Shown here in pieces: positions 44,669 through 61,225 of a stretch of 64,000 bases of DNA (its first letter is position 1; the number at the start of each line of letters is the position of its first letter). Source of the DNA: Nitrosopumilus sp. (GTDB taxonomy: Archaea > Thermoproteota > Nitrososphaeria > Nitrososphaerales > Nitrosopumilaceae); the NCBI GenBank assembly GCA_965206745.1, contig OZ242220.1:832001-896000 (forward strand), written 5' to 3'. Position numbers and translations under genes: made by a program. The notes under the pieces are model-generated. The model ran no database searches, was not told the origin of the DNA, and worked only from the letters and a program-made list of their open reading frames with translations.

Positions 44669-46006
44669 CTAGAGGACGATTCTATAGTAATCCCATCTTT
44701 CTGGATCAAACAGTGTTACAAATTCTGCCTGCTCTTTGTCTATTCTGGCCCTGATGACGTCTCGCAGCGCAAAGCTTGTCATGAATTTGAATTTCAACGA
44801 GTGGGCCTGCATGACAAACATGTGGCGCATCTCGCTGCCTCCCTTCAATCCCCAATATCCCATCTTTAGTGCGATTGGTTCTAAAAATATCGTATTTCCC
44901 AAGCCGTAATTTTCATCCCTGATCTCTTCTCGAAGCTTGTATTTTTCTAGAGGGCCTCCTTTGGAGAACCCCACGATCTCCCCGTCTTTGTCATTTAACC
45001 TCAATGTGTTGATGATCACCTGCGGGTCCTTGACTGATTTTTCAAAATTCTCCTTTTCAAACTGGAGCGGGGTTGGCAGTTCCAAAAAGATCTCATACAA
45101 TGATTTTATAAATTCCGGATCCGCCCTTGTTGTCATCGACTCTATCGTTGGAATCAGCTTTAGATTTTCATACGAATAGTCTGCCTGTATTGCAATCTCC
45201 TGCCGTCTGATTTCCATAAACGACAGCACGGTGTCAAAGAAATTCTTCCTCATCTCTTTTGGCAGCGCTTTGAGAATCCCTTTGGACATGTCTGTCTCCT
45301 TGCTTAGCAATTCTTCAAAATATGCAACGGCATTTTTGACAATTAGTGACGATCTCCATGCCAATGCATGCGCGTTCATCTTTGCCATCTCCATTGCCTT
45401 TGCAAAATCCCCTATCGCATAACCGCTTATCCTGTCCACCACAGAGAGATACCATCCCATCTCCATGATGTGTTCCTGATACGGCAGGTTGTTCCTTGTT
45501 ATCTCTGATCTGTTGAAACATTCCTTGATTTGAACTTCCATATTGTCTTTTATCTTTCCGTTCCATGGATAGGTCGTCCTTAAAATCAAAACCTTGATTA
45601 TCTCTAAATCCATCTTTGCGTCGTTGATCAGCTGGAGGAGTTTTTTGTCCATGGAAATGAATTTCAAAACGCTCTCTTCATGAGGCTTGTCGACACTTTT
45701 TTGAGGATCAAAATCGTGAAACAGCGCTGCAACGTACAGGTACTTTACATCCTCATGCGTGAGTTTGATTCGTTTTTGGTTTATGGCCAAAAGTGAAACA
45801 TATGTGACTTCTAGTTCGTGGTTGATGTTGTGGTATCCGTAATACTCTGTCCCCAGCCCCTGGCTCTCAAAGAGGTCAATGGTATAATCCAACATCTCGA
45901 CATAGCAGTCATCTGCTAATCCGTTCTCTGCCATCAGATTGAGAATCTCACTTCTCATCGAATGGACATTTGCAAATTGCTGCAATACAGACAGATCCAA
46001 ATTCAT
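44669..46006 (-). CDS. HD-domain phosphohydrolase fused to a GNAT-like C-terminal domain
   Basis: YHNINH, AALFHD, HEE, D; C-terminal IVGF...IFLEPIAL..GYWG..GG. Confidence 0.75.
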   Translation of the reverse strand: MNLDLSVLQQFANVHSMRSEILNLMAENGLADDCYVEMLDYTIDLFESQGLGTEYYGYHNINHELEVTYVSLLAINQKRIKLTHEDVKYLYVAALFHDFDPQKSVDKPHEESVLKFISMDKKLLQLINDAKMDLEIIKVLILRTTYPWNGKIKDNMEVQIKECFNRSEITRNNLPYQEHIMEMGWYLSVVDRISGYAIGDFAKAMEMAKMNAHALAWRSSLIVKNAVAYFEELLSKETDMSKGILKALPKEMRKNFFDTVLSFMEIRRQEIAIQADYSYENLKLIPTIESMTTRADPEFIKSLYEIFLELPTPLQFEKENFEKSVKDPQVIINTLRLNDKDGEIVGFSKGGPLEKYKLREEIRDENYGLGNTIFLEPIALKMGYWGLKGGSEMRHMFVMQAHSLKFKFMTSFALRDVIRARIDKEQAEFVTLFDPERWDYYRIVL

Positions 46007-46164
46007 GTTTTTAAAGATGATCTCTCTGATCCTAGTCTGTGATTTTTTTGCTGACTGTGGGCAGACTGTTCACGTGCAATCTCAATCATGGCCTGTTTAA
46101 CTATGCATTCCAAGAGGACTCTCTGTTTTTCTGGCCGTGGCACCATTTTGCCACTTTCTGCCAA
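46003..46164 (-). CDS. Small hypothetical protein overlapping the HD-gene start
   Basis: ATGA overlap with the downstream gene; start uncertain. Confidence 0.4.
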   Translation of the reverse strand: MAESGKMVPRPEKQRVLLECIVKQAMIEIAREQSAHSQQKNHRLGSERSSLKT

Positions 46165-46331
46165 ATTTGGCCATCCCTCCAAAGATATGTAAATGTACCA
46201 TTTTACAATCTCATGGAATTGTCGATTGACTCTGCATCTTGATCTGTAAATTGTCTGATTTATACAAAAACATTGAATGTCGTCTGTTTTTATCAAAACA
46301 TTCAATAGAATTATGACTCTCTGATCATTCA

Positions 46332-46736
46332 ATGTCATTTGATACAGAACTGCTTGATAGGCTAATGGAGTTTAATGAGAAAAATTCCCCTGCATTCACA
46401 CTTTATGTCAATGACGTGGCCTACCGGATTGCAAGCACATCTATAACCAATTCCCCAATACCTGTAAACGAACCCACGACCCGTGGAGGCGTGTACTTTT
46501 CAGATAAATTTGCATACAAAATTAAATGTGTCGTCGAGGATCTCTCGATAGTTCCTTTGTTGACAAAGAAGATGCTTGGACCAAACACTGAATTTGGCGA
46601 ATTAAGAATCACCGTCTCCATCGAATCTGATGGAAGGGTGATTCCAGTTGAAATCTTTACCAATCTTACAAACAGCGTTCAGACTCCGGACTCTATTGAG
46701 CTTGGCATGATTATTGTAAAACTAGGGTCTGCCTAG
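46332..46736 (+). CDS. Hypothetical protein
   Basis: 134-aa beta-rich ORF; PTTRGGVYFSD. Confidence 0.7.
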   Translation: MSFDTELLDRLMEFNEKNSPAFTLYVNDVAYRIASTSITNSPIPVNEPTTRGGVYFSDKFAYKIKCVVEDLSIVPLLTKKMLGPNTEFGELRITVSIESDGRVIPVEIFTNLTNSVQTPDSIELGMIIVKLGSA

Positions 46737-47284
46737 TCTTCCTTAAAGTATCTGTCGTATTTTTCCCTGCGTTCCTTGTCTGATAACACCTCGTATGCTT
46801 TGTTGAGTTCTGTCATCTCCTCTTGGGAGTCCTCCCTGGTTTTGTCCGGATGTGTCTTCTTTGCAAGCGCCCTGAACTTTCTTTTGATCTCCTCAGAGGT
46901 TGCATCCTTCTCCACCCCGATGATCTCATAGTAGTTTGGAAGTCTTTGATTGTTGAGTGCATCTAGGAACTCCTTGTCATCTTGGGTGTTGCTTCTCTGG
47001 CCTAGCTCCTCATAGTCATCCCCCCAGTCTGAGTGGTATTTTTCAAACGTCTTGTCCTTTTTTGACTCTAGCTCCTCCCTGTCATAGGATGTCTTTCTTC
47101 GAAGTATGACGTCCCTTGAAAGAAACAAGGCCAGTGCCAGTACTGCAATTGCAAAGCCTGAGAACAGCACTATCTTCTCCTCATCTGTCACCTTCAACTC
47201 CGTCTCAAAACCCTCCTCCTGTGCATGTGCCACTTGAATGCCCAAGATGATGACTGTGATTATGAAAATACCTTGTGTGTTCAT
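46733..47284 (-). CDS. Membrane-anchored J-domain protein
   Basis: Signal plus TM; NYYEIIGV, HPDK, AYEVLSD...R..YD. Confidence 0.9.
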   Translation of the reverse strand: MNTQGIFIITVIILGIQVAHAQEEGFETELKVTDEEKIVLFSGFAIAVLALALFLSRDVILRRKTSYDREELESKKDKTFEKYHSDWGDDYEELGQRSNTQDDKEFLDALNNQRLPNYYEIIGVEKDATSEEIKRKFRALAKKTHPDKTREDSQEEMTELNKAYEVLSDKERREKYDRYFKED

Positions 47285-47295
47285 CCCTTATTCCT

Positions 47296-47739
47296 CTATG
47301 ATAGCCTAAAGTCTTCCTTTGCGGTATTTAGAACTAGATGGGTTATCGTATTTTCCACGTTTGGAATGGTTGCCAGATCCTTTACAAACTTGCTCAACTC
47401 CTTTCTCTCTTTGAATTTTGCGATAACTATGGTGTCTGTCGAACCCGTAATGTCATACACCCCGCAGACATTTTCAAATTTTGCTATCTCTTCCTCGATA
47501 TCCATCACTTTGTCGTTCTTGGCCAGAATTTCAATAATGGCAGTCAGCGAGTATCCTATTTTTTCATGGTCGACAATTGCAGTATACCCGTGAATTATCT
47601 TGGCCTTTTCTAGTTTCTTGATTCTAGATAGTACCGTGACTGTTGACATTCCAAGTTTGAGTGCAAGGTGCCTTGCCGACTGCCTTGCATCCACTAGCAG
47701 GTTTTTGAGGATCCTCTCGTCTGTCTCATCTAGGCTCAT
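47296..47739 (-). CDS. Lrp/AsnC transcriptional regulator
   Basis: LDETDERIL..L..DAR HTH; YDITGSTD. Confidence 0.92.
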   Translation of the reverse strand: MSLDETDERILKNLLVDARQSARHLALKLGMSTVTVLSRIKKLEKAKIIHGYTAIVDHEKIGYSLTAIIEILAKNDKVMDIEEEIAKFENVCGVYDITGSTDTIVIAKFKERKELSKFVKDLATIPNVENTITHLVLNTAKEDFRLS

Positions 47740-47858
47740 ATCATACCGTGGTGAAAAATTTATTTAAATTTTGATGAAATGCGTGTAAATCTATTTGATC
47801 TGACTCGTTTTTGGTTCTGATTCCTCTGATTTAATACAAATGATGTCCTTGCTGATTC

Positions 47859-48086
47859 ATGGATCAGATCAAGGAACTCGTCAGGAAGGGCCAAGTTTTG
47901 CTCGATGAGGGGAGATACGAGGATGCTCTGGACTTTTTTGAGCAGGCACTGCTCTTGAACCAAAACGATCCTGACCTCTGGAATCACAAGGGGGTTGCCC
48001 TTCGGAGTCTGGGACGATACGAGGAATCCATGGCATGCTTTAACAAGTCCCTTGAGATTGAGCCCCGCGACAAGTCTGCATCCTGA
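47859..48086 (+). CDS. Small TPR protein
   Basis: Two TPRs (LWNHKGVAL..LGRYEES). Confidence 0.85.
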   Translation: MDQIKELVRKGQVLLDEGRYEDALDFFEQALLLNQNDPDLWNHKGVALRSLGRYEESMACFNKSLEIEPRDKSAS

Positions 48087-48178
48087 ATCCGATTCAATCG
48101 TATTGCAAGAGACATCCCCAAAGTTTGGTTATTGTACTGTAATTACTGATTTAATACAGGACTGTTCATATCTGATCA

Positions 48179-48751
48179 ATGCCTGTTCTGTCTGCACAAC
48201 TGACTGGCAGGACAAAAAATCAGTTTATTATTGACAAAATATCACCAAAGGCAGTGAATGAAAAGACTGAGAAGATACTGGCACGGGCACTAGAGTGCGT
48301 TGAGGATGGGAATCCCCATGATGCCTTGAAATTATATGATGTGGCACTAAAAGAGGAACCTGACAACCCTGGCATCCTAGTTGACAGGGGCCTGACACTG
48401 CAAAATATGGGAAGATTCAAGCTTGCCATCTGCTCGTATGATGAAGCACTTGGTATCTCTCCTGAAAATATTGATGCGCTGGTAAACAAGGGGGTCGCTT
48501 TACATTGCAATGAGGGATACCTTGATGCAATAGCGTGCTATGATGCTGCCTTGAAGATTGACCGAAGATGTGCAATGGCTCTGGCATACAAGGGACTCTC
48601 ATTAGGCGAGCTTGGTGATCTTCAAGACGCAATCAGACACTTCAAAGAGGCACTATCTGTTGACCGGCATTATGAGCTGGCAAGTATCTCAAAGGATGCT
48701 GCCTTGCAACTGTTAAAATCAGCCAAAGAGAGTGAATCTAAAACACGGTGA
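48179..48751 (+). CDS. TPR protein
   Basis: About five TPRs; true start probably further downstream. Confidence 0.85.
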   Translation: MPVLSAQLTGRTKNQFIIDKISPKAVNEKTEKILARALECVEDGNPHDALKLYDVALKEEPDNPGILVDRGLTLQNMGRFKLAICSYDEALGISPENIDALVNKGVALHCNEGYLDAIACYDAALKIDRRCAMALAYKGLSLGELGDLQDAIRHFKEALSVDRHYELASISKDAALQLLKSAKESESKTR

Positions 48752-48911
48752 CATCGCCTGGTGCCGGCTCCCGCTTGTCCTGCTTTGTATTCTCCTCAAA
48801 AAAGTCACTATGGGCAGAATTTTGATGCTCCCGCAGTTCCTCTATGTTCTGAAAGCCCTCGTGGCACAGGTAGCACTTGGGCTTGTGCTCGTCGACTAGG
48901 GGAAGTACCAT
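48738..48911 (-). CDS. 57-aa C2H2 zinc-finger protein (not in ORF track)
   Basis: MVLPLVDEHKPKCYLCHEGFQNIEELREHQNSAH...: canonical C-x2-C-x3-F-x5-L-x2-H-x4-H. Confidence 0.8.
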   Translation of the reverse strand: MVLPLVDEHKPKCYLCHEGFQNIEELREHQNSAHSDFFEENTKQDKREPAPGDVTVF

Positions 48912-48985
48912 GGTATCTCTGGTACGACTGGCTACTTATTTCTTGAGACTATAAGGAATATATCATGATGAGATGGCCATCCATC

Positions 48986-50083
48986 ATGCTAGAAGAATTG
49001 GTTGGAGATTCACAAGCTCTGGATCGCGCTCTTGCCGGAGAGGAACTCTCCTACAAGGACGGACTTGAGCTGATGAACTATGACAATCTGCATCTGCTTG
49101 GGGCAGTAGCTGATGACTCTAGAAAGAGACTAGTCAGTGACACTGTGACCTTTGCTGCATCTTACTACATGAACTATACCAATGTCTGCGCCGCCAGCTG
49201 TCAGATGTGCGCGTTTTATCGCAAGGACGGGGCAGATGACGCATACACGCTGACCCCCCAGGAGATTGAACAGAGGGTGGGCATTGCAAAACAGATGGGC
49301 GCAACTGAGGTTCACATAGTTGGTGGCTTTCATCCCAAACTCCCCCTTGAGTACTATGAGGACATGATGATGGCTATAAAGAAGAGCCATCCCCAGCTTA
49401 ACATCAAGGCACTGACTGCAGCTGAGATTTACTACCTATCCAAACTTACAAAAAATTCCACAAAAGAGATACTCTCCCGCCTCAAGGATGCGGGTCTTGA
49501 CTCGATGCCTGGCGGGGGTGCGGAGCTGTTCCATCCTGGGATTAGGGGAAAGATTGTCCGAGGAAAATGCACGGGACAGCAGTGGCTTGATGTCATCGAG
49601 GAGGCACACGGCATGGATATCAAAAGCAATGTCACCATGCTTTATGGTCACATTGAAAAGCCAGAGCACATAGTTGACCACCTAATCAAGGTTCGTGACT
49701 TGCAAAAAAAGACCGGCGGATTTCTGACACTAATCCCGCTAAAATTCAGCCTTGATAACACAGAGCTAGAACAAGAGCACCTGGTAAACAATGAGTGCTC
49801 ATCAGTATACGACTTGAGAATCATCGCACTATCCAGACTGATGCTTGGAGGCGTACTGGATAACATTTCAGTTTACTGGGTCGCATATGGCAAGAAACTT
49901 GCACAGGTAGCACTCTCCCATGGCGGGAGTGATTTAGTCGGCACTGCCTTCTCTGAGGAGATTTACAAAGCTGCAGGAAAGGCGACCTCCTCATCAGTTG
50001 AGGAGCTTGCAACAATGGTCAAGGAGATTGGCAGGCTTCCTGCACAGAGAAGCACACACTTTGATATTCTAAAGAGGTTCTAG
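48986..50083 (+). CDS. mqnE: Radical SAM enzyme, CofH/Mqn family; most like aminofutalosine synthase MqnE
   Basis: NYTNVCAASCQMCAF, EVHIVGGFHP, IKALTAAEI, MPGGGAE, TMLYGHIE. Confidence 0.8.
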   Translation: MLEELVGDSQALDRALAGEELSYKDGLELMNYDNLHLLGAVADDSRKRLVSDTVTFAASYYMNYTNVCAASCQMCAFYRKDGADDAYTLTPQEIEQRVGIAKQMGATEVHIVGGFHPKLPLEYYEDMMMAIKKSHPQLNIKALTAAEIYYLSKLTKNSTKEILSRLKDAGLDSMPGGGAELFHPGIRGKIVRGKCTGQQWLDVIEEAHGMDIKSNVTMLYGHIEKPEHIVDHLIKVRDLQKKTGGFLTLIPLKFSLDNTELEQEHLVNNECSSVYDLRIIALSRLMLGGVLDNISVYWVAYGKKLAQVALSHGGSDLVGTAFSEEIYKAAGKATSSSVEELATMVKEIGRLPAQRSTHFDILKRF

Positions 50084-50385
50084 TCCATCTGTCTTTTGAT
50101 CGAATCTACCTTCTCCTCCATTCCGTGATGCTTGTCCCTTCTTGAGTCAATCTTGACTATCACCTCGACTCGGGCAACCCCGAGATTGTGAACTGTCTCT
50201 GTCATCTGCTTGATGGCAGAGTTTATCACATCGATACTCTCTGATTCAAGAATCGTCCCCATTGCATTGATCTCATACCTGAGATTCTCCATTCTCTGAA
50301 CTGACTCTATTGCCTTTGCGATGTAAAAACTGGCACTGGTGGTTCTGGTGGCCATCGGGTATATGCTGATCTCTGCGTGAATCAA
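50080..50385 (-). CDS. MTH1187/YkoF-family thiamine-binding protein
   Basis: AEISIYP, AMGTILE, KIDSRRDK. Confidence 0.85.
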   Translation of the reverse strand: MIHAEISIYPMATRTTSASFYIAKAIESVQRMENLRYEINAMGTILESESIDVINSAIKQMTETVHNLGVARVEVIVKIDSRRDKHHGMEEKVDSIKRQMD

Positions 50386-50826
50386 TATGCCTCCCTCCAA
50401 ACCCCTTGACTAATAATTTCTTCTAGACCAGAGCCAGCCTGCAAAAGAAATTATGACTAGATCATAATTATATATTCTCTAAAATTAACAACGTCCTTAT
50501 GATCAGTATTCACATACAAGATCGTTTTCAATTCTTACTGCAATGCAATTTTTTGACGAATCAGATTATGATCTCACATTTCTTGATTCGCGTATTGACT
50601 TTATATCCGTACAAACATATGTTTATTTATCATTATGGATATTGGTTACGTATTACTAAAATGGGAAAAAAATGAAACAGAGTTTGAAATGAACATGATT
50701 GACGATCAAAAACAGAGTAGGTTTGTGAGAATTCTCCACCCATTAGCTAAATTTTTAGAAATCTCTAATACATTAAAATTCATAATAAAGGGTAGGACTA
50801 TGTTAATTATAGTGAGAGGAAAATAA

Positions 50827-51618
50827 TTGCCAGCACGGCGTTGCAGATTCTTCATAGATGACGCACTGGACAAATTGAAAAAAATCAGTTCCAACTCAGT
50901 AGATCACTGTATAACCGATCCACCTTACAATATATCTGGATATGACGGGAAAAAACCAATAGGATGGTTAAAAACCAATTCATTATGGACCAAAGATAAA
51001 AAATTTAACAAGATTGATGAAAAATGGGATTCTTTTTCTGATGAAGAATACATAGAATTTACCAAGAAATGGCTAGATGAGGTTTTCAGGGTCGTAAAAC
51101 CCAATGGCAATGTGATAATTTTTGGCACTTTTCACAACATCTACACACTTGGATATTTGATGAGAAAATATAAAAAGAAAATTATTGGTTCAATTACATG
51201 GTACAAACGTAATGCATTTCCAAACATAACCCGGCGTATGTTATGTGAAAGTACGGAATATTTGATTTGGGGGGTAAATAACAGTGTCAAAGATGCTAAA
51301 TGTTGGACTTTTAATTATGACGTGCTAAAGGAAATAAACAACGGAAAACAAATGCGTAATGTCTGGGACATCCCCATGACCAGTAAATCAGAAAAACAGT
51401 ATGGAAAGCACCCAAGTCAAAAACCGATTGAAGTATGTAAAAGGCTTATCATTGGAATGACAAATGAGAATGATGTTGTTCTTGATCCCTTTGCAGGAAG
51501 CGGAACAATTCCATTGGTTGCCAAAATGAATAATAGAAAATACATTGCCATTGAAAAGGATAAAAAATATGCAAAAATTGCTCAAAAGAGACTAAAAAAT
51601 ATAATGACCTCCGTCTAA
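50827..51618 (+). CDS. Beta-class N4-C/N6-A DNA methyltransferase (M1)
   Basis: ITDPPY precedes HPSQKP and LDPFAGSGT. Confidence 0.93.
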   Translation: MPARRCRFFIDDALDKLKKISSNSVDHCITDPPYNISGYDGKKPIGWLKTNSLWTKDKKFNKIDEKWDSFSDEEYIEFTKKWLDEVFRVVKPNGNVIIFGTFHNIYTLGYLMRKYKKKIIGSITWYKRNAFPNITRRMLCESTEYLIWGVNNSVKDAKCWTFNYDVLKEINNGKQMRNVWDIPMTSKSEKQYGKHPSQKPIEVCKRLIIGMTNENDVVLDPFAGSGTIPLVAKMNNRKYIAIEKDKKYAKIAQKRLKNIMTSV

Positions 51619-51665
51619 TTTAATTCAGCATTAAAACTAAAAACAAATCGAATCCAAAAAAATTA

Positions 51666-52670
51666 TTGGATGATGAATTATTAGAAAAAGACATACAACG
51701 TCTAAGAGATTTACAGATTAAACTAAAAGAAGAATTTGGAATTATTGATATTTATTCCAATAGTAAAATCTATGAAATAATAATCGCTAATGAGTTAGGA
51801 CATACGCCCATAGCAGGACATTCTGGGACAAGAAATGGAAAAACCGAGAATGGTGAATTTGAATACAAGCATTATAAGGAACGAAGTTCGAATCACAGCT
51901 GGGCATTTAACGACTATTCTGATACCGTAATTGAAGGATTAAAGGGGGCTGAATCCGTTATCTTTGCACATATTGACAATGATGATGAGAGTGGCCAAAA
52001 ATTTGATTGGTATATTGAAGTACAAGGTACTATTTGTTCTGACTATTTGAGACAACGTACAGAAAAACTTCTAAAAGAAAAACCAAAAGGAAGAGTCAAT
52101 GCGAGGAGAATGATTAACTTTTCACCCCAACAACTCATGAAAGATCTAAAAATTCCTAAAACTTGGATTACACCAATATTTGACAAAGGAAAATACACAA
52201 CCTGCATAGATGAGTTAAATGAAATAGTATTATCCATAGAGAAAAATACAGGAATTAAACAAATTTTAACAAGTAACAAATTATGGGAATTGGTTGTATC
52301 TATTCCTTTAAAACATCAAGTATTGTCTGAACAGTCTGGACATGATGCGATAGATGCTGTCGGAAATTATTATGAGTACAAAGTATCTACCAGTCATTCA
52401 TGGAATTTTCAGGATATATCTGAGACAGTGCTAAAAAAATACGAATCAGATAAAGAGATAATATTGGGAGTCATTGACAAAAAAATTATCAAAATACATG
52501 AAATTTATATTGCAAATTCAAAAGATGTTGTGAATTTACTTAGATGTAAACTTGTAGATAAAGAAATAAAATATAAAAAAAATGGAAAAGAATTAAGACG
52601 TTTGTCAATTTCTTTATCAAAAGGTGATTTGAAGAAAGTTAATGCTCGCATATTTACTGAACGCAATTAA
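51666..52670 (+). CDS. Putative restriction/nicking endonuclease with two fused PvuII-like domains
   Basis: Internal duplication. Domain 2 GHDAIDAVGNYYEYK resembles PvuII GNDAVDNAGQEYELK (recalled). Flanked by two MTases. Confidence 0.75.
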   Translation: MDDELLEKDIQRLRDLQIKLKEEFGIIDIYSNSKIYEIIIANELGHTPIAGHSGTRNGKTENGEFEYKHYKERSSNHSWAFNDYSDTVIEGLKGAESVIFAHIDNDDESGQKFDWYIEVQGTICSDYLRQRTEKLLKEKPKGRVNARRMINFSPQQLMKDLKIPKTWITPIFDKGKYTTCIDELNEIVLSIEKNTGIKQILTSNKLWELVVSIPLKHQVLSEQSGHDAIDAVGNYYEYKVSTSHSWNFQDISETVLKKYESDKEIILGVIDKKIIKIHEIYIANSKDVVNLLRCKLVDKEIKYKKNGKELRRLSISLSKGDLKKVNARIFTERN

Positions 52671-53406
52671 CAATCTTTTCCTGTTGATGTATACGGATAG
52701 ATTCTTTCTCAATGCTTTTTTTTGCATCCATACAGTATTTTTTATTAGTTTCGAAACCAATATAATTCCTATTCAACTGTTTACAAGCAATACCTGTTGT
52801 TCCAGAACCCATGAAAATATCCAACACTATGGCATTTTCTTGAGTTGTCAATTCTATTAATTCCTTGAACAATCCTAATGGTTTCTGTGTGGGGTGTACT
52901 CTGCTTTTTCCTTTTGGAGCCTGATATTTGAATATGTTGTGGGTACAGTATCCACCAAAAAAGGCACTATTCTTTTTCCCAATTATTGCAGACTCCCACG
53001 CGTTTAGTAGTTTTGACTTTCCGTTGAGAGGTATTGGATCTGGTTTTTGCCATACTATAACATCGATTGCTTTGAAACCATGTTTTTCAAAATAACTCCA
53101 GTATTTGCTTATGTCTTGTTTTGCACAGAATATGATTGCCCATCCTTTTACTTTCTTTAGTGCCACATCAGCCCATTTGATAAATTGTTCATTGTCCTGC
53201 CATGATTGATCCCATTTGCCATAATCAAAATCCAATTTTGCAGTAGTTCCTAATTTTTGACCTTTACAGTTCAATTTCTGACTTATGCCATAAGGAGGAT
53301 CTGTAATCAATAGATCAATGCTGCTGTCTGGAATCTTGTCTAATCCTTTCACTCCATCTGAATTATAAATTCTGTTTAATACCAGATCACCATGTTTTTT
53401 TAGCAT
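52654..53406 (-). CDS. Beta-class N4-C/N6-A DNA methyltransferase (M2)
   Basis: ITDPPY, HPTQKP, LDIFMGSGTT. Confidence 0.93.
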   Translation of the reverse strand: MLKKHGDLVLNRIYNSDGVKGLDKIPDSSIDLLITDPPYGISQKLNCKGQKLGTTAKLDFDYGKWDQSWQDNEQFIKWADVALKKVKGWAIIFCAKQDISKYWSYFEKHGFKAIDVIVWQKPDPIPLNGKSKLLNAWESAIIGKKNSAFFGGYCTHNIFKYQAPKGKSRVHPTQKPLGLFKELIELTTQENAIVLDIFMGSGTTGIACKQLNRNYIGFETNKKYCMDAKKSIEKESIRIHQQEKIVNCVQ

Positions 53407-53465
53407 GTGATATTTTGAATATTTAGGTGATTATATAAAACCTAAATTTTCTCCCTTATTACGTA

Positions 53466-53600
53466 ATGATCTGTGCTTCTTGTGAAATGAGAAATCATTT
53501 TGAGTGTATTGATTGTCAAAACGATCATAAAACCTATCTATGCAATTGTGATTGCCATGATGAAAATACTAAATCGCATGGGTCTAGTGAGACTCGTTAG
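53466..53600 (+). CDS. 44-aa Cys/His-rich microprotein, copy B (not in ORF track)
   Basis: MICASCEMRNHFECIDCQNDHKTYLCNCDCHDENTKSHGSSETR. Confidence 0.75.
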   Translation: MICASCEMRNHFECIDCQNDHKTYLCNCDCHDENTKSHGSSETR

Positions 53601-53691
53601 ATCAATCACTGAGATCCATATTTTTGGTCTCCAAGATTGCACAGAACTATTCATAGAAAGATGTTTAAATTGAATTAAAAAATTCAATATA

Positions 53692-55701
53692 TTGCAGGCA
53701 CGATACATAAATCTAATAGAACTATTAGAAGGACGGAATCAATTCAATATACCGATATATCAGCGTACATATGATTGGCATCAAAAACAATGCAAACAGT
53801 TACTTGATGATATTATCAAGGCAGGAAATAATACAAAGCCAAAGCATTTTCTAGGAACAATCACATATCTATCTGAAACAACCGATGCAGTAGATGTTCG
53901 TACTCATCAAGTTATTGATGGTCAGCAAAGACTGACAACTCTTATGCTGTTACTAAAAGCATTGAAAAGTTCACCTAATGTGGATACATCATTGGAAGGT
54001 AAAATTGAAAATTTATTATTTAATCCACATGAGAATAATGACAAACGGTTCAAATTAATATTGACAGATGATGATGACTCAAATTTGAGAAATATTCTAG
54101 ATGATGATGACATGGAAATATCAAGCAACCTTTCTATAAATTACAACTATTTTAAAATTGAACTAAATAATTTAGATACTAATTCTATATGGACTGGAAT
54201 AAACAAACTTACTGTGGTAAGCGTTATGGTTGACCCAGAAAATGATGTACAATCTATCTTTGAAAGTATGAATTCTACCGGTCTTAATTTGTCTGATACA
54301 GATATGATACAAAATTACATGCTAATGTCTCATCCTCAAACCAAACAAAAGGAAATCTATACAAAGTACTGGAAACCTATGGAATCTAGGTTACAAAATG
54401 ATGATGATTTTGATGAATTTTTAAGAAATTATCTAATCATGCATAACGGAAAGATAATACCAAAGAAGCAAACCTATGAATTTTTTAAAGATTATATGAA
54501 CAGTCGTGATAGGGAAGAGGAAATTAAAAAAATGCATAAATATTCAAAATATTATGCAGAAATTCTAACTTTATCTGAGCACGAATCTACTAAGATAGGT
54601 ACAGTACTTCAATTCATACGTAATCAAAACACAAATGTTGCCTTTTCTTTTATGTTAAAGGTTTTATTTGATTATGATGATAAAATACTTGATGAGGAAC
54701 AAGTAGAAAAAATATTGTTATTAGTTGACAGTTATCTACTTAGATGTCATGTATGTCAAACAACCAAAGGTGGAAATAAGGTTTTTCCAGAGATGATCCC
54801 GAAGATAAATAAAAATGATTATGTAAAAAGTGTAGAGCAGGTATTGATGTCAAAGAGTGGAAACAGACAGTTCCCAAGAGATGTTATGTTTGCAGATAAA
54901 CTAAAGCAGGCACAGTTATACAACAATAGAACTATCTGCAAGTACATACTTGCTAGATTGGAATCTGATAAAACTAGAGAACTGGTTAATCCTAACCACC
55001 TCCAAATAGAACACATTATGCCTCAAACTTTATCTCCTTCATGGGATGATTGTCTTGGAGACAAGTATGTAGACATTCATATACGATATGTTGACACCAT
55101 TGGGAATCTTACACTTACAGGTTATAATCAAAAACTTGGCAATGATTCATTTTCAGAGAAATGCAAAACGTATGAGGAGAGCAATGTGACAATTACTAGG
55201 GATTTAAGCAAATATGAAGAATGGAATGAACGAACCATACAAGATCGTGCTGAGCAACTTGCCAAACAGGCCATTACAATATGGAAATGTCCGGAAATCC
55301 CAATAATATTTGACCCTGAACCAGATGTTCTTGAAGAACAACATCTTGAGGGAAAAGAATGCGTGGATCTATGGAGAACTTTGAAAGATAAAATTATCTC
55401 AGAATGCCCAAATGCAAAGTTTTACATGTCTACGATATATGGAGGTTTTAGAATATCTAAAGAAAATAATGAAAAGATATTGTGTACTATGGAGATCCTT
55501 AAACATCACATATATCTTGCATACAATACAAAAAAAGACGAACAAATCATTCATGTATCTGAATTTGTAAAGGATGTTTCATCTATTGGCACTCGTACAC
55601 TTGGAGACTTTAGGTCCACTATTCGAACTAATGACGACATTCAGAAAGCAGTAGAAGTGGTAAAGAAAGTATGGTTACATATGTCAGATAATCCAATTTA
55701 A
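53692..55701 (+). CDS. GmrSD-family protein (DUF262 + DUF1524 HNH) with extra C-terminal domain
   Basis: IPIYQRTYDW, IDGQQRLTT, IFESMNSTG, IEHIMPQ, IGNLTL...N..LGN..F.EK. Confidence 0.9.
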   Translation: MQARYINLIELLEGRNQFNIPIYQRTYDWHQKQCKQLLDDIIKAGNNTKPKHFLGTITYLSETTDAVDVRTHQVIDGQQRLTTLMLLLKALKSSPNVDTSLEGKIENLLFNPHENNDKRFKLILTDDDDSNLRNILDDDDMEISSNLSINYNYFKIELNNLDTNSIWTGINKLTVVSVMVDPENDVQSIFESMNSTGLNLSDTDMIQNYMLMSHPQTKQKEIYTKYWKPMESRLQNDDDFDEFLRNYLIMHNGKIIPKKQTYEFFKDYMNSRDREEEIKKMHKYSKYYAEILTLSEHESTKIGTVLQFIRNQNTNVAFSFMLKVLFDYDDKILDEEQVEKILLLVDSYLLRCHVCQTTKGGNKVFPEMIPKINKNDYVKSVEQVLMSKSGNRQFPRDVMFADKLKQAQLYNNRTICKYILARLESDKTRELVNPNHLQIEHIMPQTLSPSWDDCLGDKYVDIHIRYVDTIGNLTLTGYNQKLGNDSFSEKCKTYEESNVTITRDLSKYEEWNERTIQDRAEQLAKQAITIWKCPEIPIIFDPEPDVLEEQHLEGKECVDLWRTLKDKIISECPNAKFYMSTIYGGFRISKENNEKILCTMEILKHHIYLAYNTKKDEQIIHVSEFVKDVSSIGTRTLGDFRSTIRTNDDIQKAVEVVKKVWLHMSDNPI

Positions 55702-55973
55702 ACACAAAACATGGTGAAAAACCATAATTGATAATGAAAGAAAAAAAATTCCAAGTTTTCTTTAATCCCTTCCAAATCTTTGACGTTACGTCTGTACAAT
55801 TTCCCACATCTTATAATTTTTGAGATGCCTTTAGAATTGTAGAATTATTTGATTAACTAACTTACCTCACTTCAAATATAGGATTTTATGAATCCGAATA
55901 AAAACCATATTTCAGTCTATTAATCGAAGATTATACAATACTAAACTATTCTATCTGAGAGTGACATTCTAAT

Positions 55974-56159
55974 CTATTTGGATTCATCTAGAAATGTTTG
56001 CAGTCTGGGAAGTGTCTCCTCCTGATAATGATTTAACGTAACATGGCATTTTTCACACAACTCAGTTGTCACCTCACCATCCAACTCCTTGACATGGTGT
56101 TCTGTAGTATTTGCTATCTCTTTGCAGGCAAAGCATATGTTGATTTTCTGTTTTCCCAT
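55974..56159 (-). CDS. Minimal HNH-like Zn-finger protein
   Basis: CFAC...EHHV...LCEKCH. Confidence 0.6.
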   Translation of the reverse strand: MGKQKINICFACKEIANTTEHHVKELDGEVTTELCEKCHVTLNHYQEETLPRLQTFLDESK

Positions 56160-56315
56160 GATTCAGGCACATAGATGATTGATTTAAAATTATAGGCTCA
56201 AAAGAATAATTTATGCATGATTTCAACCCCTGAAAACCTATAAACATCAAAATTCAACCAATCAGAATTGTAAAAATAGATACAGAAATACTATCCCATA
56301 AGGGATGAGGCAACT

Positions 56316-56570
56316 CAGGATAAACCTGCATCGTGTCTTTGTGGAAAGGGGGACTTTAAGACATATCCGGAAAGGCAATATCCGATACATCTGCAGAAAC
56401 TGCAATACGACCTATTTTGTAGAGTCCTGTAAAGGATGAGCAGAAACTCAAAAGTGCCGGAAACATATTTGACAATATTGCATTTGGGATGAGCACTAGA
56501 GAGGCATCCCTTAGGACGTTTGTGGACTGGGGAGACACTATCTCATGCGACTATTCTGAATTGATCTGAG
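56316..56570 (+). pseudogene. Decayed transposase N-terminus (IS1/IS6-like Zn finger + HTH)
   Basis: Frameshifted pieces KPASCLCG / GNIRYICRNCNTTYF / FGMSTREAS. Confidence 0.4.
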
Positions 56571-57289
56571 AAACACAACAACTACATATGCAGAAATTCA
56601 AATTGGTAAATTTTTTGAATTCAGACGAAAACTTGTATTTCAGATCCTTACATCTTCAGAACAGATGATTCGGAGTGGCAGTAATGTTTGCAGTGACAGG
56701 AATATCCCTATGCAACTCAGGGCGTTGTAGGAATATTTTGTAAATATCTTGCTATTATGGTATTGTTCAGCAGGAATTTCTGCTGGGAACGGTATATCAT
56801 CAGCGGATTTGCCTGTCACGTATACTTCTAACGTGGTACAGTCAAACCAGCGAAAATCCAAACACGATAAAACAAAATATGTCAAATTGCATCATATATG
56901 ATATATATCTCCGAAACTATGTCTTGACTTTTCCATTTCCATGATTTTTGAATTGTGTATTAAATATTTAAAATGCTTTTTTATTAACGGTGCCTGATTT
57001 GAATTTACAGATGGGGTTTTTTTGAATTCGAGGAAGATCCATATTTTGTGCTTTGTAGTAACTTGACAAAATTCCAAGTTTGAGGGATTTTTTGGATCGG
57101 AATAAGATCGATATTTCAGATCATACATTCATAACCATATGCTGAAAACACACTAACTTGCCAAGGGGTGAAACCTTCGTTCAACTTAACAGAGCACCTA
57201 GACAGGTTTGTTTTTATCATGGTCTGTTTAATCAGTTACATGACTGACATACAAAGGCAAGGTCTGTCAATCCCGACTGGAACCGAACT

Positions 57290-57400
57290 ATGATTAAAAC
57301 CAAGTGTGATCGATGCGGCTCTGATTTGGGCACGGAAAGTAAAAAGACCAAACAGAAATTTTGCGGCAACTGTAAAAAAAAGTTTGATTTGTACCGTTAA
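57290..57400 (+). CDS. 36-aa Zn-finger microprotein (not in ORF track)
   Basis: MIKTKCDRCGSDLGTESKKTKQKFCGNCKKKFDLYR. Confidence 0.55.
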   Translation: MIKTKCDRCGSDLGTESKKTKQKFCGNCKKKFDLYR

Positions 57401-57408
57401 TCGGCCTT

Positions 57409-57684
57409 TTATTCTGCAGGCTTTTTCTCGACTCTCTTGGCGCTGTCTCTCTTTTTCCTTGCACCAAAACTGATCAAGATTAGCAAAAATCCCACCCCGA
57501 TGAAGATCCCTGAGAGCATCTGATATGCCTGGTTCTGATCCTCTGCCATAAACAGGTCAATTACCTCCTCTTCTGTCATGTTTGACTGGCCTGCAGGTTC
57601 CTCCACTGATGCTGCGATAAATACAATTCCTATAATGATCATTGCCACTCCTCCGCCTAGAATCTTTTTATCAACAAGAACCAT
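57409..57684 (-). CDS. Two-TM membrane protein
   Basis: Two hydrophobic helices and a basic tail. Confidence 0.75.
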   Translation of the reverse strand: MVLVDKKILGGGVAMIIIGIVFIAASVEEPAGQSNMTEEEVIDLFMAEDQNQAYQMLSGIFIGVGFLLILISFGARKKRDSAKRVEKKPAE

Positions 57685-57731
57685 CTCTGGTTAGAATTTG
57701 GACTTTACCATATATTAGGTATATGTGAATT

Positions 57732-58022
57732 TTAGAATCCTTCGGGAGGTCTCTGTACAAAGACGTTGCATACTAGCGCGTCTGTCTTGGTATCCCTGTA
57801 CTGGACGTTGCATGAAACAAACTTTCCCTTCAGTGCCCGCTCTAGGTCTTCCTTTGTCTTCTCCTCGTACTGCGGCTGGCTTGGGTCATCAATCTTGCCG
57901 ATGATTACCTTCTCGATCTTTCCATACTGCTCCTGGTTGTCCTTTCTTGTATGGCTGATTAACAGTTCAAAAGCATTGTTTGCAAGAATGCTCAAAACTG
58001 CCCCGCCTATGCCGTCTCCCAT
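57732..58022 (-). CDS. Hypothetical protein, possible degenerate SNase-like OB fold
   Basis: KIDDP...LERALKGKFVSC.V..RD...LVCNVFV pattern. Confidence 0.65.
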   Translation of the reverse strand: MGDGIGGAVLSILANNAFELLISHTRKDNQEQYGKIEKVIIGKIDDPSQPQYEEKTKEDLERALKGKFVSCNVQYRDTKTDALVCNVFVQRPPEGF

Positions 58023-58049
58023 GGTTGCTGAATTTTTTTTGTTCTATAA

Positions 58050-58886
58050 TTACTTGTTGGCAATGCTGATCTCAAAGTCCGGAACCAGTCCCTTCTGCCT
58101 TGCCATCTCAAAGAGTCTTCTGATGGACTCCTCACCTGGCTCTCCCATGTTTACTGTAACTCGGTTTACGTACATTTTTACGAATCTCTCAATTAATCCT
58201 CTCTCCTTGCCCCTGGCATACTGCATTGCGTACTCTATGGCATCATCAAAGTTATTCATTCCAAACTCGATTGAGGCCTGAAGGTATCTGTCAAACTTTG
58301 TTATCGTCTCCATGCCAAGGTCGGTTCTCATCACGTTAATCCCCAGTGGAACCGGCAGACCGCCTGTCGTCTTGTCCCACCACTCACCGACATCCAAAAT
58401 TTTGAGGTTCCCCTCCTGCTCGTATGAGAGCTGCGTCTCATGGATTACCAGCCCCACATCGACCTTGCCTGACTTTACGGCCTCTGGAATGTCGCTAAAG
58501 TTCATCTCTACGTAATCAAACTTTCCAATCATCAGTTGTAGTAGTAGAAATGCCGAGGTCATCTTTCCGGGAATTGCAATCTTTGATCTCTTTACCTCAT
58601 CTATGCTCATCTGCCTTCTGGCAGTGACTATTGGGCCGTAATTAATTCCAAAGCTTCCGCCGCTCCTCAAAATGGTATACCCTGGGATAAACGCACATGC
58701 GTGAACTGATACTGCAGTCACATCCAGTTCCGGATTTGCAGCCTTGCGATTTAGCTTTTCTATATCCTCAATTACGTGGTTTACCTCAAATTCTGCAGAT
58801 GGAACCTTGCCTGTAAACATGCCATAAAACATGAATGCGTCATCTGAATCAGGGGTGTGTCCTACTGAAATCTTCATGACTGTCAT
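58050..58886 (-). CDS. mqnD: MqnD-type menaquinone biosynthesis protein (1,4-dihydroxy-6-naphthoate synthase)
   Basis: GHTPDSDDAFMFY, DIEKLN, IAIPGKMTSA, IHE, LPVPLG, MYVN. Confidence 0.88.
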   Translation of the reverse strand: MTVMKISVGHTPDSDDAFMFYGMFTGKVPSAEFEVNHVIEDIEKLNRKAANPELDVTAVSVHACAFIPGYTILRSGGSFGINYGPIVTARRQMSIDEVKRSKIAIPGKMTSAFLLLQLMIGKFDYVEMNFSDIPEAVKSGKVDVGLVIHETQLSYEQEGNLKILDVGEWWDKTTGGLPVPLGINVMRTDLGMETITKFDRYLQASIEFGMNNFDDAIEYAMQYARGKERGLIERFVKMYVNRVTVNMGEPGEESIRRLFEMARQKGLVPDFEISIANK

Positions 58887-59032
58887 GCCGGATTCTCGTA
58901 ATAAATATCACAACCAGATTAATGTGGCAGAAAACAGACCAGTTGGTTTCCCAAAAAAGATTGACACAGTTTCAAACCCTCTGATCTTTTGGAAGGCTAA
59001 GGTTTAATACCTGAATCCAGAGTTTTGCGAAT

Positions 59033-61225
59033 ATGGCAAAATTCAAGTCAACTGCTGAGGTGATGAAGATCATCAAGAACAAGTCCAACATCCGTAACTT
59101 TGGTGTCATTGCCCACGTTGACCATGGAAAGACTACCATGAGTGACAGCCTTTTGGCGTACTCTGGAATTATTGCCCCCTCTGCTGCCGGAAAGGCACTT
59201 GCAATGGACTTTGACAAGGAGGAGCAAGAGAGAGGAATTACAATTTATCAGGCAAACGTGACCCTGCTGTTCTCACAAAAGGATCAAGAGTATGTAATTA
59301 ACATGATTGATACTCCAGGGCACGTCGATTTTAGCGGAAGGGTGATTCGAAGCCTTCGGGCAATTGACGGCGCAGTAGTCGTCTGTGACGCAGTGGAGGG
59401 TATAATGACTCAGACTGAGACTGTAACTCGAATGGCCCTTGAGGAGAGGGTAAGGCCTGTCCTGTTTATCAACAAGGTAGACCGGCTCATCAAGGAACTG
59501 CGACTGACTCCTGAAAAGATGCAGGCGCAGTTGGCAGATGTGGTCTCAAGCTTTAACACGTTAATTGACACATATGCAGAACCTGAATACCGGGACAAAT
59601 GGAAGGTCTCCATTCAGGATGCCAGTGTGACGTTTGGTTCTGCAAAGGACAGATGGGCAATCAACGTTGATCTGATGAAGGAGCGGGGAATCACATTCAA
59701 GGATGTCATTGATGCATACACCAATGAAAAGGTTGAAGACCTTGTAGAAAAGGCACCTTTAGCTGATGCCGTACTTGGAATGGTCGTCAAGCACCATCCT
59801 GCACCTGCTGATGCGATAAAGTACAGGATTCCGCAGATCTGGAAGGGTGATCTAGAGTCTGATGTTGGCAAGGCACTCCTTGCCGGTTCTGATGACGGTC
59901 CGACAATAATGATGGTCGTAAACATGGTATTGGATCCTGCAGCAGGTCCCGTTGCAATCGGAAGGCTGTTCTCTGGCACCATCAAGGACGGCCAGAACCT
60001 TCACATCATAGATGAGAAGAGAGAGGGAAGGGTCCAGTCAGTCAATTTCTTTATGGGAAATCAGAGGGAGCAGGTAGGCGAACTCGGAGCAGGAAACATT
60101 CCTGCCTTGTTGGGACTGACTGAATGCAGAGCCGGAAACACACTCTCCTCGATTAAGGGGATTCCAATGTTTGAAGGAGTAAAGTATGTCTCAGAACCTG
60201 TCGTGCAGATTGCAATTGAGCCCAAGCATCCAAAGGATCTGCCAAAGCTTGTAGATATTCTAAAGCAGTTAACCATTGAGGATCCAAACCTTGTCGTAAA
60301 GATTGACGAGGAATCCGGCGAGACAATAGTCGCTGGAATGGGCGTGTTGCATCTGGATGTTGCAACGCACAGGATTCAGGATGCAAAGTGTGAGATTATA
60401 ACATCCGAACCGCTGATTAACTATAGGGAGACTGTAAAGGGTCCGTGCGAGCCTGTCATGGCAAAGTCTCCAAACAGGCACAACAAGATCTTCATGAAGG
60501 TCGAGCAGCTGGAACCTGAAATATCACACATGCTAAGAACCGGTGAGATTAGTGATCTAAAAGACAAGAAACAGGTCTCTGACTTGCTAAAGGGGGTAGG
60601 ATGGGATACTGATACGATCAAGAGGGTAATGAAGTTTGACTCTCGTGGAAATGTTTTGATTAACGGCACAAAGGGTGTCCAGTTTGTTCAAGAGTCAACT
60701 GACTCTATCAACTCTGGATTTGAGGATGTCATGAAGGAGGGTCCTCTGTGCAAGGAGCAGATGAGGGACTGCAAGTTTATCTTTACCCACTTTGTCCCTC
60801 ACGAGGATACTGCACATAGGGGCCTGTCCCAGTTGGGGCCTGCCTCACGCAGGGCATGCATGGGTGCACTATTAACTGCAGGTACTGCCGTCTTGGAGCC
60901 GACACTTGCAATCGAGGTCCGTGTTCCGACTGACCTGGTTGGTAATGTTGCAACGATTCTCTCAGGCAAGCGTGGCAAGGTCCTTGACATGTCACAAAAG
61001 GGCGCATCAAGCATTGTTCTTGGTGAGATTCCCGCATCTGAGACATTCACACTGTCTGAGGCAATGAGGGGACAGACTGCAGGACGTGCAACATGGAACA
61101 CCTCCTTTAAGGAGTGGACCGAGGTTCCAAAATCCATGCTGGCAACGGCAGTTGCCGATATCAGAAAGAGAAAGGGACTGGCACCGGACCCACCTGGCGT
61201 TAACGAGTTTATCGATAAAGTGTAG
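59033..61225 (+). CDS. fusA: Translation elongation factor aEF-2
   Basis: AHVDHGKTT, RGITI, DTPGHVDF, NKVD, diphthamide motif HEDTAHRG. Confidence 0.98.
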   Translation: MAKFKSTAEVMKIIKNKSNIRNFGVIAHVDHGKTTMSDSLLAYSGIIAPSAAGKALAMDFDKEEQERGITIYQANVTLLFSQKDQEYVINMIDTPGHVDFSGRVIRSLRAIDGAVVVCDAVEGIMTQTETVTRMALEERVRPVLFINKVDRLIKELRLTPEKMQAQLADVVSSFNTLIDTYAEPEYRDKWKVSIQDASVTFGSAKDRWAINVDLMKERGITFKDVIDAYTNEKVEDLVEKAPLADAVLGMVVKHHPAPADAIKYRIPQIWKGDLESDVGKALLAGSDDGPTIMMVVNMVLDPAAGPVAIGRLFSGTIKDGQNLHIIDEKREGRVQSVNFFMGNQREQVGELGAGNIPALLGLTECRAGNTLSSIKGIPMFEGVKYVSEPVVQIAIEPKHPKDLPKLVDILKQLTIEDPNLVVKIDEESGETIVAGMGVLHLDVATHRIQDAKCEIITSEPLINYRETVKGPCEPVMAKSPNRHNKIFMKVEQLEPEISHMLRTGEISDLKDKKQVSDLLKGVGWDTDTIKRVMKFDSRGNVLINGTKGVQFVQESTDSINSGFEDVMKEGPLCKEQMRDCKFIFTHFVPHEDTAHRGLSQLGPASRRACMGALLTAGTAVLEPTLAIEVRVPTDLVGNVATILSGKRGKVLDMSQKGASSIVLGEIPASETFTLSEAMRGQTAGRATWNTSFKEWTEVPKSMLATAVADIRKRKGLAPDPPGVNEFIDKV

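Follow-up and report, generated by a model that had tools for sequence, protein, structure and literature searches.

The locus analysed here raises the question of what a PvuII-like restriction enzyme would do if one of the two catalytic sites in its chain carried asparagine in place of the first catalytic aspartate. The gene concerned, R, lies at 51666..52670 (stop codon included) on the forward strand of a 64,000-nucleotide stretch of DNA from the marine ammonia-oxidising archaeon Nitrosopumilus sp., hereafter the window, and is an intact open reading frame with a TTG start that encodes a single-chain tandem PvuII-like endonuclease of 334 amino acids, whose length and N terminus agree with those of its homologues. 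The N-terminal PvuII-like domain (51666..52160, about residues 1–165, forward strand) contains GHSGTR-N57-G58-KT...E66-Y-K68, in which the site-1 aspartate is replaced by asparagine, and the C-terminal PvuII-like domain (52161..52667, about residues 166–334, forward strand) contains an intact H-D227-A-I-D...E237-Y-K239. In the window sequence, N57, E66 and K68 are encoded by AAT (51834–51836), GAA (51861–63) and AAG (51867–69), and D227, E237 and K239 by GAT (52344–46), GAG (52374–76) and AAA (52380–82), respectively; each of these six residues, which had been named in an earlier note on this DNA, is found in the translated sequence. The spacing of the motif is N57-x8-E66-x-K68 in the first domain, as compared with D227-x9-E237-x-K239 in the second.

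The Asn57 codon AAT (51834..51836, forward strand) stands where the R family has aspartate (GAT or GAC), and the Asp and Asn codons at this position are one transition apart. An assembly error at base 51834, which the earlier note had raised as an alternative, can be rejected, since a Logan contig with a word depth of 399 covers 51600–52700 with 0 differing letters and Asn recurs at this position in 14 other homologous proteins; together these observations indicate that Asn57 is real. A second Logan contig (13.6x) over 51600–52493 has one other letter, and the table of other letters lists no difference. Both Logan runs possibly represent the source sample, and it is the 14 further family members that provide independent support.

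The internal duplication that had been read from the letters of R is borne out by both pairwise and profile comparison. BLASTP aligns residues 1–167 with residues 168–334 at 27% identity over 95 residues (E 1e-11), and hhalign aligns the N-half and C-half profiles of the family (194 members) over 148 columns with a probability of 99.5% (E 1.5e-22), pairing position 57 with D227, E66 with E237, and K68 with K239. By sequence evidence alone, the case for PvuII membership is weak. The Pfam model PF09225 scores 18.6 bits on R, below its cut-off of 25, and covers residues 173–270 only, the N half has no Pfam match of its own, and a phmmer search of R against PDB sequences yields nothing meaningful. 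Compared with PDB sequences, the R family profile retrieves the single-chain PvuII 3ksk with an E value of 0.001, as compared with 0.4–0.7 for PvuII monomers; in the alignment with 3ksk, the family consensus GHSGSRDAKD..EFEYK is paired with PvuII GNDAVDNAGQEYELK, placing its acidic and lysine residues on D58, E68 and K70, which constitute the active site of PvuII.

Our structural comparison used an AlphaFold2 model of R built from a 50-sequence alignment (pLDDT 92.1, pTM 0.86). The top PDB match of this model in Foldseek is 3ksk (339 columns, E 1.2e-12, TM 0.60–0.65), followed by PvuII monomers. VIA-align superposes the model (residues 1..333) on 3ksk with a Z score of 19.5 and an rmsd of 4.8 over 297 aligned residues, and superposes model residues 169..331 on PvuII monomers with Z scores of 11–12.8. 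The fold searches were run with the whole-chain model, the N half being covered through the whole-chain match to 3ksk. Because both programs match the whole chain to 3ksk, the model strongly supports that the two halves of R and their mutual arrangement resemble a PvuII dimer fused into one chain, and the earlier proposal of a single-chain PvuII-like pseudo-dimer is upheld at the level of predicted structure. The PvuII-type Asp...Glu-x-Lys signature is complete in the C domain, but the N domain combines E66 and K68 with Asn57. The last four residues apart, no ten-residue block of the model scores lower than residues 51–60 (mean pLDDT 75), which may for this reason be flexible. R departs from the PvuII pattern, in which two identical subunits of ~157 aa act together on a palindrome; given a single 334-aa chain of two diverged copies, R is better described as a variant than as a plain member of the PvuII family.

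R is flanked by two genes for beta-class amino-DNA methyltransferases with a DPPY motif. The CcrM-like M1 (50827..51618, forward strand, 263 aa) ends 47 bp before R, and the DpnA-like M2 (52654..53406, reverse strand, 250 aa) lies convergently to R, with which it shares 17 bp. Pfam PF01555 (N6_N4_Mtase) scores 161.3 bits on M1 and 124.6 bits on M2, and the NCBIfam CcrM model scores 199.8 bits on M1, below its cut-off. The best PDB sequence matches of M1 and M2 are CcrM 6pbd (E 5e-42) and DpnA 5hek (E 2.7e-35), respectively. By rule of thumb, we take the DPPY motif of both proteins to indicate N6-adenine methylation. Across 63 genome loci compared by tblastn, M1 orthologues (53–69% identity; 74% in L065) adjoin R in 40 and M2 orthologues (54–68% identity; 73% in L065) are found in 25, such that 24 loci have both, 16 have M1 only and one, on a short contig, has M2 only. 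Twelve loci were then picked for a Pfam check among those without an M2-like match, often also without an M1-like match, and adjacent amino-methyltransferase genes are present in all 12, with two genes or two modules in nine. The forms encountered there include a second methyltransferase of 536–540 aa, fusions of D12-class and N6_N4 modules of 870–973 aa, an 875-aa protein with two N6_N4 stretches, and N6_N4 + Mrr_cat fusions of 794–802 aa. The two-methyltransferase partnership noticed at this locus is therefore a property of the family in these 63 loci and the 12 picked from them.

This constant link to two methyltransferase activities, as an asymmetric site requires, fits the R system to the Type IIT class. 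Two different catalytic sites in one enzyme, which is a Type IIT/IIA feature, are the norm in the R family, and in the R of the window site 1 is without its Asp. R, whose halves have diverged and which is accompanied by two methylases, is very probably the nuclease component of a Type IIT/IIA restriction-modification system and a natural counterpart of the single-chain PvuII made by engineering. The system is part of a low-GC island (50400..57200; GC 0.29–0.38, as compared with 0.41–0.49 on both sides) that contains M1, R, M2, a GmrSD gene and small unassigned ORFs and is accessory, horizontally moved DNA; no tRNA gene was found within positions 46000–60000 of the window. The GmrSD-type (Type IV, modification-dependent) endonuclease (53692..55701, forward strand, 669 aa; Pfam GmrSD_N 122.1 bits, GmrSD_C 101.9 bits) probably belongs to a separate defence function, and apart from one partial match in L052 it is absent beside R in the other loci.

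A search for proteins of similar length (E<=1e-3) recovers at least 545 R homologues, and in a library clustered at 50% identity the family occupies only 59 clusters, mostly fragments. The family is a single compact group with 37–74% identity to the query and has a patchy distribution over both archaea and bacteria. According to the record titles, the archaeal homologues come from Nitrosopumilus-type archaea and from Woese-, Nano- and Aenigmarchaeota, and the bacterial homologues from many candidate phyla, Cytophagales, Pelagibacteraceae, Prochlorococcus/Synechococcus and gut Clostridia (Firmicutes). Within the taxonomic family of the window, R occurs in 2 of 201 genomes, the window's own counted. 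In the sources examined, every homologue is named 'hypothetical protein' except one 'plasmid maintenance system killer protein', and most carry a precomputed PF09225 label; no NCBIfam model matches R, no RNA data set is listed as containing it, no annotated R homologue was found in plasmids, and one unannotated phage-like contig is among the matches. Short homologues (P0127–P0145) look like truncated or frameshifted gene calls rather than stand-alone half-size forms, and broken copies of R exist elsewhere, two loci (L035 and L055) matching in pieces. The literature searched, outside which REBASE and most subscription journals lay, yielded no paper that reports a tandem PvuII-like enzyme from nature or the R family.

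Whether position 57 is normally Asp can be answered from 194 full-length rows (>=290 aa), retained from 245 proteins obtained by two homologue searches together with seven cluster representatives after short or fragmentary rows were dropped. It is: Asp is present in 179 rows, Asn in 15, and no other residue occurs. E66, K68, E237 and K239 are invariant in all 194 rows, and D227 is Asp in 193, the exception being Tyr in P0025. Since the Asp is normally intact at both sites across the family, Asn57 is, as judged from the alignment, a derived minority state limited to site 1. Asp57 is kept even in Lachnospiraceae proteins of 37–41% identity, and in 61 loci covering the position with one genome per species, 59 have Asp and two (L002 and L014) have Asn. 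Among loci with DNA, the Asp codons are GAT (32) and GAC (9) and the Asn codon is AAT in four cases, two of which are the window itself.

The 15 Asn57 rows, all with full-length ORFs, belong to two clades. Clade 1 comprises 11 rows with 'GHSGTRNGKT', including the window, the Nitrosopumilaceae genomes L002 and L065 and a protein of a Cenarchaeum symbiont, and clade 2 comprises four rows with 'GHSGSRNG.D' that include a Zixibacteria MAG and are 71–76% identical to each other. Asn57 rows differ consistently from Asp57 rows in two columns only, 57 and 58. Residue 58 is Gly in all 15 Asn57 rows, as compared with Ala in 161, Gly in 17 and Thr in one of the 179 Asp57 rows; at the second site, the Ala after the catalytic Asp (A228) is kept in 193 of 194 rows, and PvuII has it too. 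An independent-pairs sign test of the association between Asn57 and Gly58 gives a median p of 0.5, the comparison being underpowered with two Gly58 backgrounds only. In each of the four Asn57 loci with DNA (window, L002, L014 and L065), both M1 and M2 are kept.

The tree indicates that this position has changed repeatedly. In a 78-row tree, the clade of the window (14 rows, SH-aLRT 97) contains 11 Asn and three Asp rows, and each of these Asp57 rows nests beside Asn57 rows. One of them, P0003, is the sister and closest relative of the window's R at 74% identity. Position 57 changes five times on this tree, and four of the changes are forced by well-supported branches; a FastTree of 194 rows computed without columns 55–63 also gives five changes. 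By parsimony, with the root not inferred, an Asn ancestor of the window's clade followed by three reversions is cheaper than an Asp ancestor followed by at least eight losses.

Early decay, which had been offered as one explanation of Asn57, is rejected on the grounds that conservation among the Asn57 proteins is higher in the N domain than in the C domain: in the clade-1 rows, the mean identity is 0.74 in the N-domain core (residues 25–135), as compared with 0.60 in the C-domain core (residues 198–300). For 13 Asn57 rows, we further examined 77 positions that are at least 95% conserved in Asp57 rows outside clade 1. D57N is the sole miss among the near-invariant N-domain positions in eight of the 13, and the other five miss one to three more, namely T80A (three rows), A101T (two rows) and D114N (one row), with three in P0044. 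Outside position 57, strong purifying selection acts on the N domain. Furthermore, no alignment column shows an acidic residue gained in both Asn57 clades, and the earlier suggestion that another acidic residue might fill the domain-1 site finds no candidate common to the two.

In PD-(D/E)XK nucleases, the first Asp of the motif coordinates the metal ions of catalysis, and variants with Asn or Ala in its place bind DNA and do not cut it; equivalent changes inactivate PvuII, EcoRV, BamHI and RecU. RecU(D88N) crystallised on DNA (5fdk) is itself among the fold matches of R in Foldseek and VIA-align. On the strength of this D-to-N effect, the lack of a compensating acidic residue, and an N domain that is otherwise conserved in Asn57 proteins and under strong purifying selection, the simplest and best reading of Asn57, which we hold at about an even chance, is that R is a strand-specific nickase or a strongly strand-biased cutter. 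The loss of site-1 catalysis and the specificity for one strand are inferences, as are the asymmetry of the recognition site and the identity of the methylated base, whereas the duplication, the fold, the family and the methyltransferase partnership are shown by the data, as is the real, derived and recurrent nature of Asn57 and its confinement to site 1.

A possible course of events is as follows. The R system would have been acquired horizontally, with two diverged PvuII-like PD-(D/E)XK domains placed like the subunits of a PvuII dimer, each of which presumably recognises half of an asymmetric site and serves one of the strands. M1 and M2 would protect the host DNA, probably by m6A, one per strand. 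Site 1 with Asn57 most likely still binds DNA but would be catalytically crippled, and the C-domain site (D227/E237/K239) would nick its strand, leaving the second strand uncut or cut far more slowly. Different half-sites for the two halves are plausible, because the loop that follows E-x-K is conserved in each domain but is not alike in the two. Word avoidance brings out no clear candidate for such a site. In the window's own genome, strong depletion is seen for no 5- or 6-mer; among 6-mers the smallest ratio is 0.55, for the palindrome CTCGAG, and the PvuII-like or known asymmetric hexamers looked at have ratios near 1. When the own genome was set against 400 kb samples of G013 (without an R system) and G044 (with one), GACTTA/TAAGTC was the sole word with a ratio of 0.75 or less in both carriers (0.59 and 0.62, versus 0.98); it is one of 1720 words tested, and a control pairing also yields one. 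Whole-genome counts of GACTTA relative to the reversed word overlap between four carriers (0.069–0.173) and six non-carriers (0.114–0.178).

Several observations weigh against a nickase. At least four to five Asp/Asn flips on the tree would also fit two near-equivalent residues, both methyltransferases are retained and a pure nickase might not need both, a nick is easily religated and its defensive value is uncertain, and the carbonyl oxygen of Asn can ligate metal ions, so that residual activity is possible. The strongest alternative is accordingly that R still cuts both strands, either because Asn57 together with E66 and K68 binds enough metal or because the second strand is cut slowly; restriction would then be normal, and Asp and Asn would be nearly neutral given Gly58. 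The alternation of Asp and Asn in close relatives, with at least four forced changes in 78 rows and five in 194, speaks for it, as do the invariance of E66 and K68 in all 15 Asn57 rows, the retention of both methyltransferases in four of four loci, and the restriction of position 57 to Asp or Asn in 194 of 194 rows, which suggests that a constraint persists. We nevertheless consider double-strand cutting rather unlikely: the Asp is kept in 179 of 194 rows at site 1 and in 193 of 194 at site 2, which is the mark of normally strong selection, its equivalents are needed for cleavage in the four nucleases named above, and no acidic residue compensates for it.

It is more doubtful still that D57N is an attenuated or disarmed allele that reduces restriction, and hence self-toxicity, in a slow-growing host with a new system, R being mainly a DNA-binding partner or on its way to loss while the methyltransferases are what matters. 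A recent and rare acquisition (a low-GC island, and a system carried by 2 of the 201 genomes searched in the taxonomic family) and the broken copies of R elsewhere (L035 and L055 in pieces, fragments such as P0145) would suit such an allele, whereas the N domain is not degenerating (0.74 identity, with hardly any other invariant residue lost), all 15 Asn57 rows have an intact ORF, the replacement is always the isosteric Asn and never another single-base neighbour of GAT, and Asn57 persists across 24–29% divergence in clade 2.

Asn-Gly is the dipeptide most prone to spontaneous deamidation. This has led us to entertain, as a highly improbable extension, that position 57 is an evolutionary and perhaps post-translational switch between nickase and double-strand cutter, in which Asn-Gly arose on Gly58 in two clades, by parsimony on an unrooted tree reverted three times in the archaeal clade, and may deamidate spontaneously, the resulting delay in second-strand cleavage sparing a new host while methylation of its DNA is still incomplete. 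The least credible alternative, a deamidation timer in which Asn57-Gly58 is converted to Asp or isoAsp after translation so that fresh enzyme is hemi-active, double-strand cutting is delayed and the methylases get a head start, draws on the Gly58 of 15 of 15 Asn57 rows (17 of 179 Asp57 rows, 161 having Ala58), on the near-invariance of Ala after the catalytic Asp elsewhere (A228, 193 of 194) and on a perhaps flexible segment (residues 51–60, mean pLDDT 75), but it is set aside as extremely unlikely because the Asn-Gly link rests on two independent Gly58 backgrounds (median p 0.5), deamidation gives mostly isoAsp, which would distort the site, a search of the own genome for the PF01135 repair methyltransferase returned weak, generic SAM-methyltransferase matches while the control was positive in 14 of 14 genomes, and we know of no restriction enzyme with such a timer.

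The nickase or strand-biased reading of R invites comparison with known systems. PvuII is a homodimer that cleaves CAG^CTG, and a single-chain version (PDB 3ksk) was reportedly engineered by Simoncsits et al. in 2001. Our model suggests that each half of R has the same fold as PvuII and that the halves have the same relative arrangement as in PvuII and 3ksk, and the D-A-x-D...E-x-K of the R family aligns to PvuII D58/E68/K70. R differs from 3ksk in being a natural fusion rather than an engineered one. It differs from PvuII in that its domains are 26–27% identical to each other and 16–22% identical to PvuII in structural alignments, with different loops after E-x-K, in that its partners are two DPPY amino-methyltransferases with distant likeness to M.PvuII (1boo, E 5e-6 and 8e-9), and in that one of its sites has Asn for Asp. 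An architecture that was built in the laboratory as single-chain PvuII has thus been made by nature, which diverged its halves and spread it widely.

Single-chain two-site Type IIT/IIA enzymes include Mva1269I, BtsCI, BsrI, AciI, BssSI and BsrBI, as given in section 35 of the review by Pingoud, Wilson & Wende 2014 (PMC4081073), and BmgBI is described in the same review as having two similar-sized domains. Compared by these descriptions, R resembles such enzymes in having one chain, two catalytic domains, two methyltransferase activities and an expected asymmetric site, whereas the two domains of Mva1269I, BsrI and BtsCI are of different kinds and those of R are duplicates. Our guess is that the R family may include, under another name, a characterised enzyme, for instance one that, like BsrBI or BmgBI, makes blunt cuts in an asymmetric hexamer. 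Two-site single-chain enzymes, and nickases obtained by knocking out one site, are already established; what is new here is that duplication of a PvuII-like domain has given rise to a Type IIT single-chain enzyme in which a catalytic Asp-to-Asn variant recurs naturally.

Natural nicking endonucleases derived from restriction enzymes include N.BstNBI, the large subunits Nb.BsrDI and Nb.BtsI, as well as Nt.CviPII, as set out in the review by Chan, Stoddard & Xu 2011 (PMC3017599). If our reading of Asn57 holds, R would resemble them in being sequence-specific and in having lost second-strand cleavage. N.BstNBI, Nb.BsrDI, Nb.BtsI and Nt.CviPII nick through failed dimerisation or a missing small subunit, whereas the candidate route in R is a point change of the catalytic Asp in a two-site chain, the route by which enzymes such as Nt.BbvCI and Nb.BbvCI were obtained in the laboratory. 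Natural pairs with and without the catalytic Asp, such as the window's R with Asn57 and P0003 with Asp57 at 74% identity, offer a ready-made test of how a nickase originates from a two-site enzyme and might supply a new nicking enzyme with sequence specificity; they are also relevant to the question of whether natural selection favours restriction systems that nick.

Residue 80 of the single-chain tandem PvuII-like endonuclease R (window 51903-51905) lies within 'SSNHSWTFNDYS' and is otherwise a near-invariant threonine. It is replaced by alanine (T80A) in three of the proteins that carry Asn57 at the first site, namely P0001 on one sub-branch and P0007 and P0008 on a separate one. The three rows of the window's clade that have Asp57 all lack T80A, but the number of rows is too small for a judgement on this substitution.

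Some members of the R family are broken. In two Cytophagales metagenome-assembled genomes (loci L035 and L055), the match to R falls into separate pieces. Among the short database proteins of the family (P0145, P0136 and P0138, for example), several have a truncated or frameshifted look, whereas in others the first residue is Met149, a conserved internal methionine within 'MIN(F/V)S'. The aspartate of the C-terminal domain is changed in P0025 only (D227Y; 1 of 194 rows of the full-length alignment), and this single database sequence may represent either an error or a dead copy.

In the two genomes with the R system that were sampled, GACTTA/TAAGTC is the only hexamer whose count falls in both to 0.75 or less of that expected under a Markov model, with ratios of 0.59 and 0.62 as compared with 0.98 in one non-carrier. 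A control pairing of genomes yielded as many depleted words as the carrier comparison, and the whole-genome counts of this hexamer in carriers (G000, G044, G201 and G202) overlap those in non-carriers. As a lead to the recognition site of R, GACTTA/TAAGTC is untrustworthy.

In the window, the methyltransferase gene M1 (50827-51618) precedes R and shares its strand, with a gap of 47 bp between the two, whereas in three related Nitrosopumilaceae loci (L001, L002 and L065) its orthologue lies upstream of R on the opposite strand, in a divergent arrangement. M1 is therefore inverted in the window's genome, and the inversion may alter the coupling of methyltransferase and endonuclease expression.

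Immediately past the restriction–modification genes, within the same low-GC island, lies a plus-strand gene (53692-55701) for a 669-aa GmrSD-type (Type IV, modification-dependent) endonuclease, with Pfam matches to GmrSD_N (122 bits) and GmrSD_C (102 bits). It is no regular companion of R at the other genome loci of the family that we compared. The rest of the island (55700-57400) holds only small ORFs with no Pfam matches, including a 61-aa ORF on the minus strand (55974-56159) with two Cys-x-x-Cys/His pairs.

In Lachnospiraceae and other gut Firmicutes (L043, L045, L049 and L052), the R homologue is adjoined by a 794-802-aa protein composed of an N6_N4 methyltransferase module and a C-terminal Mrr_cat endonuclease domain, which is encoded downstream of the homologue in the first three loci and upstream in L052. 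A further ORF of 155-168 aa accompanies the homologue at all four loci, encoding an HTH_3 protein in L052 and having no Pfam match at the other three. The same endonuclease family as R is thus found in these Firmicutes with a different partner architecture.
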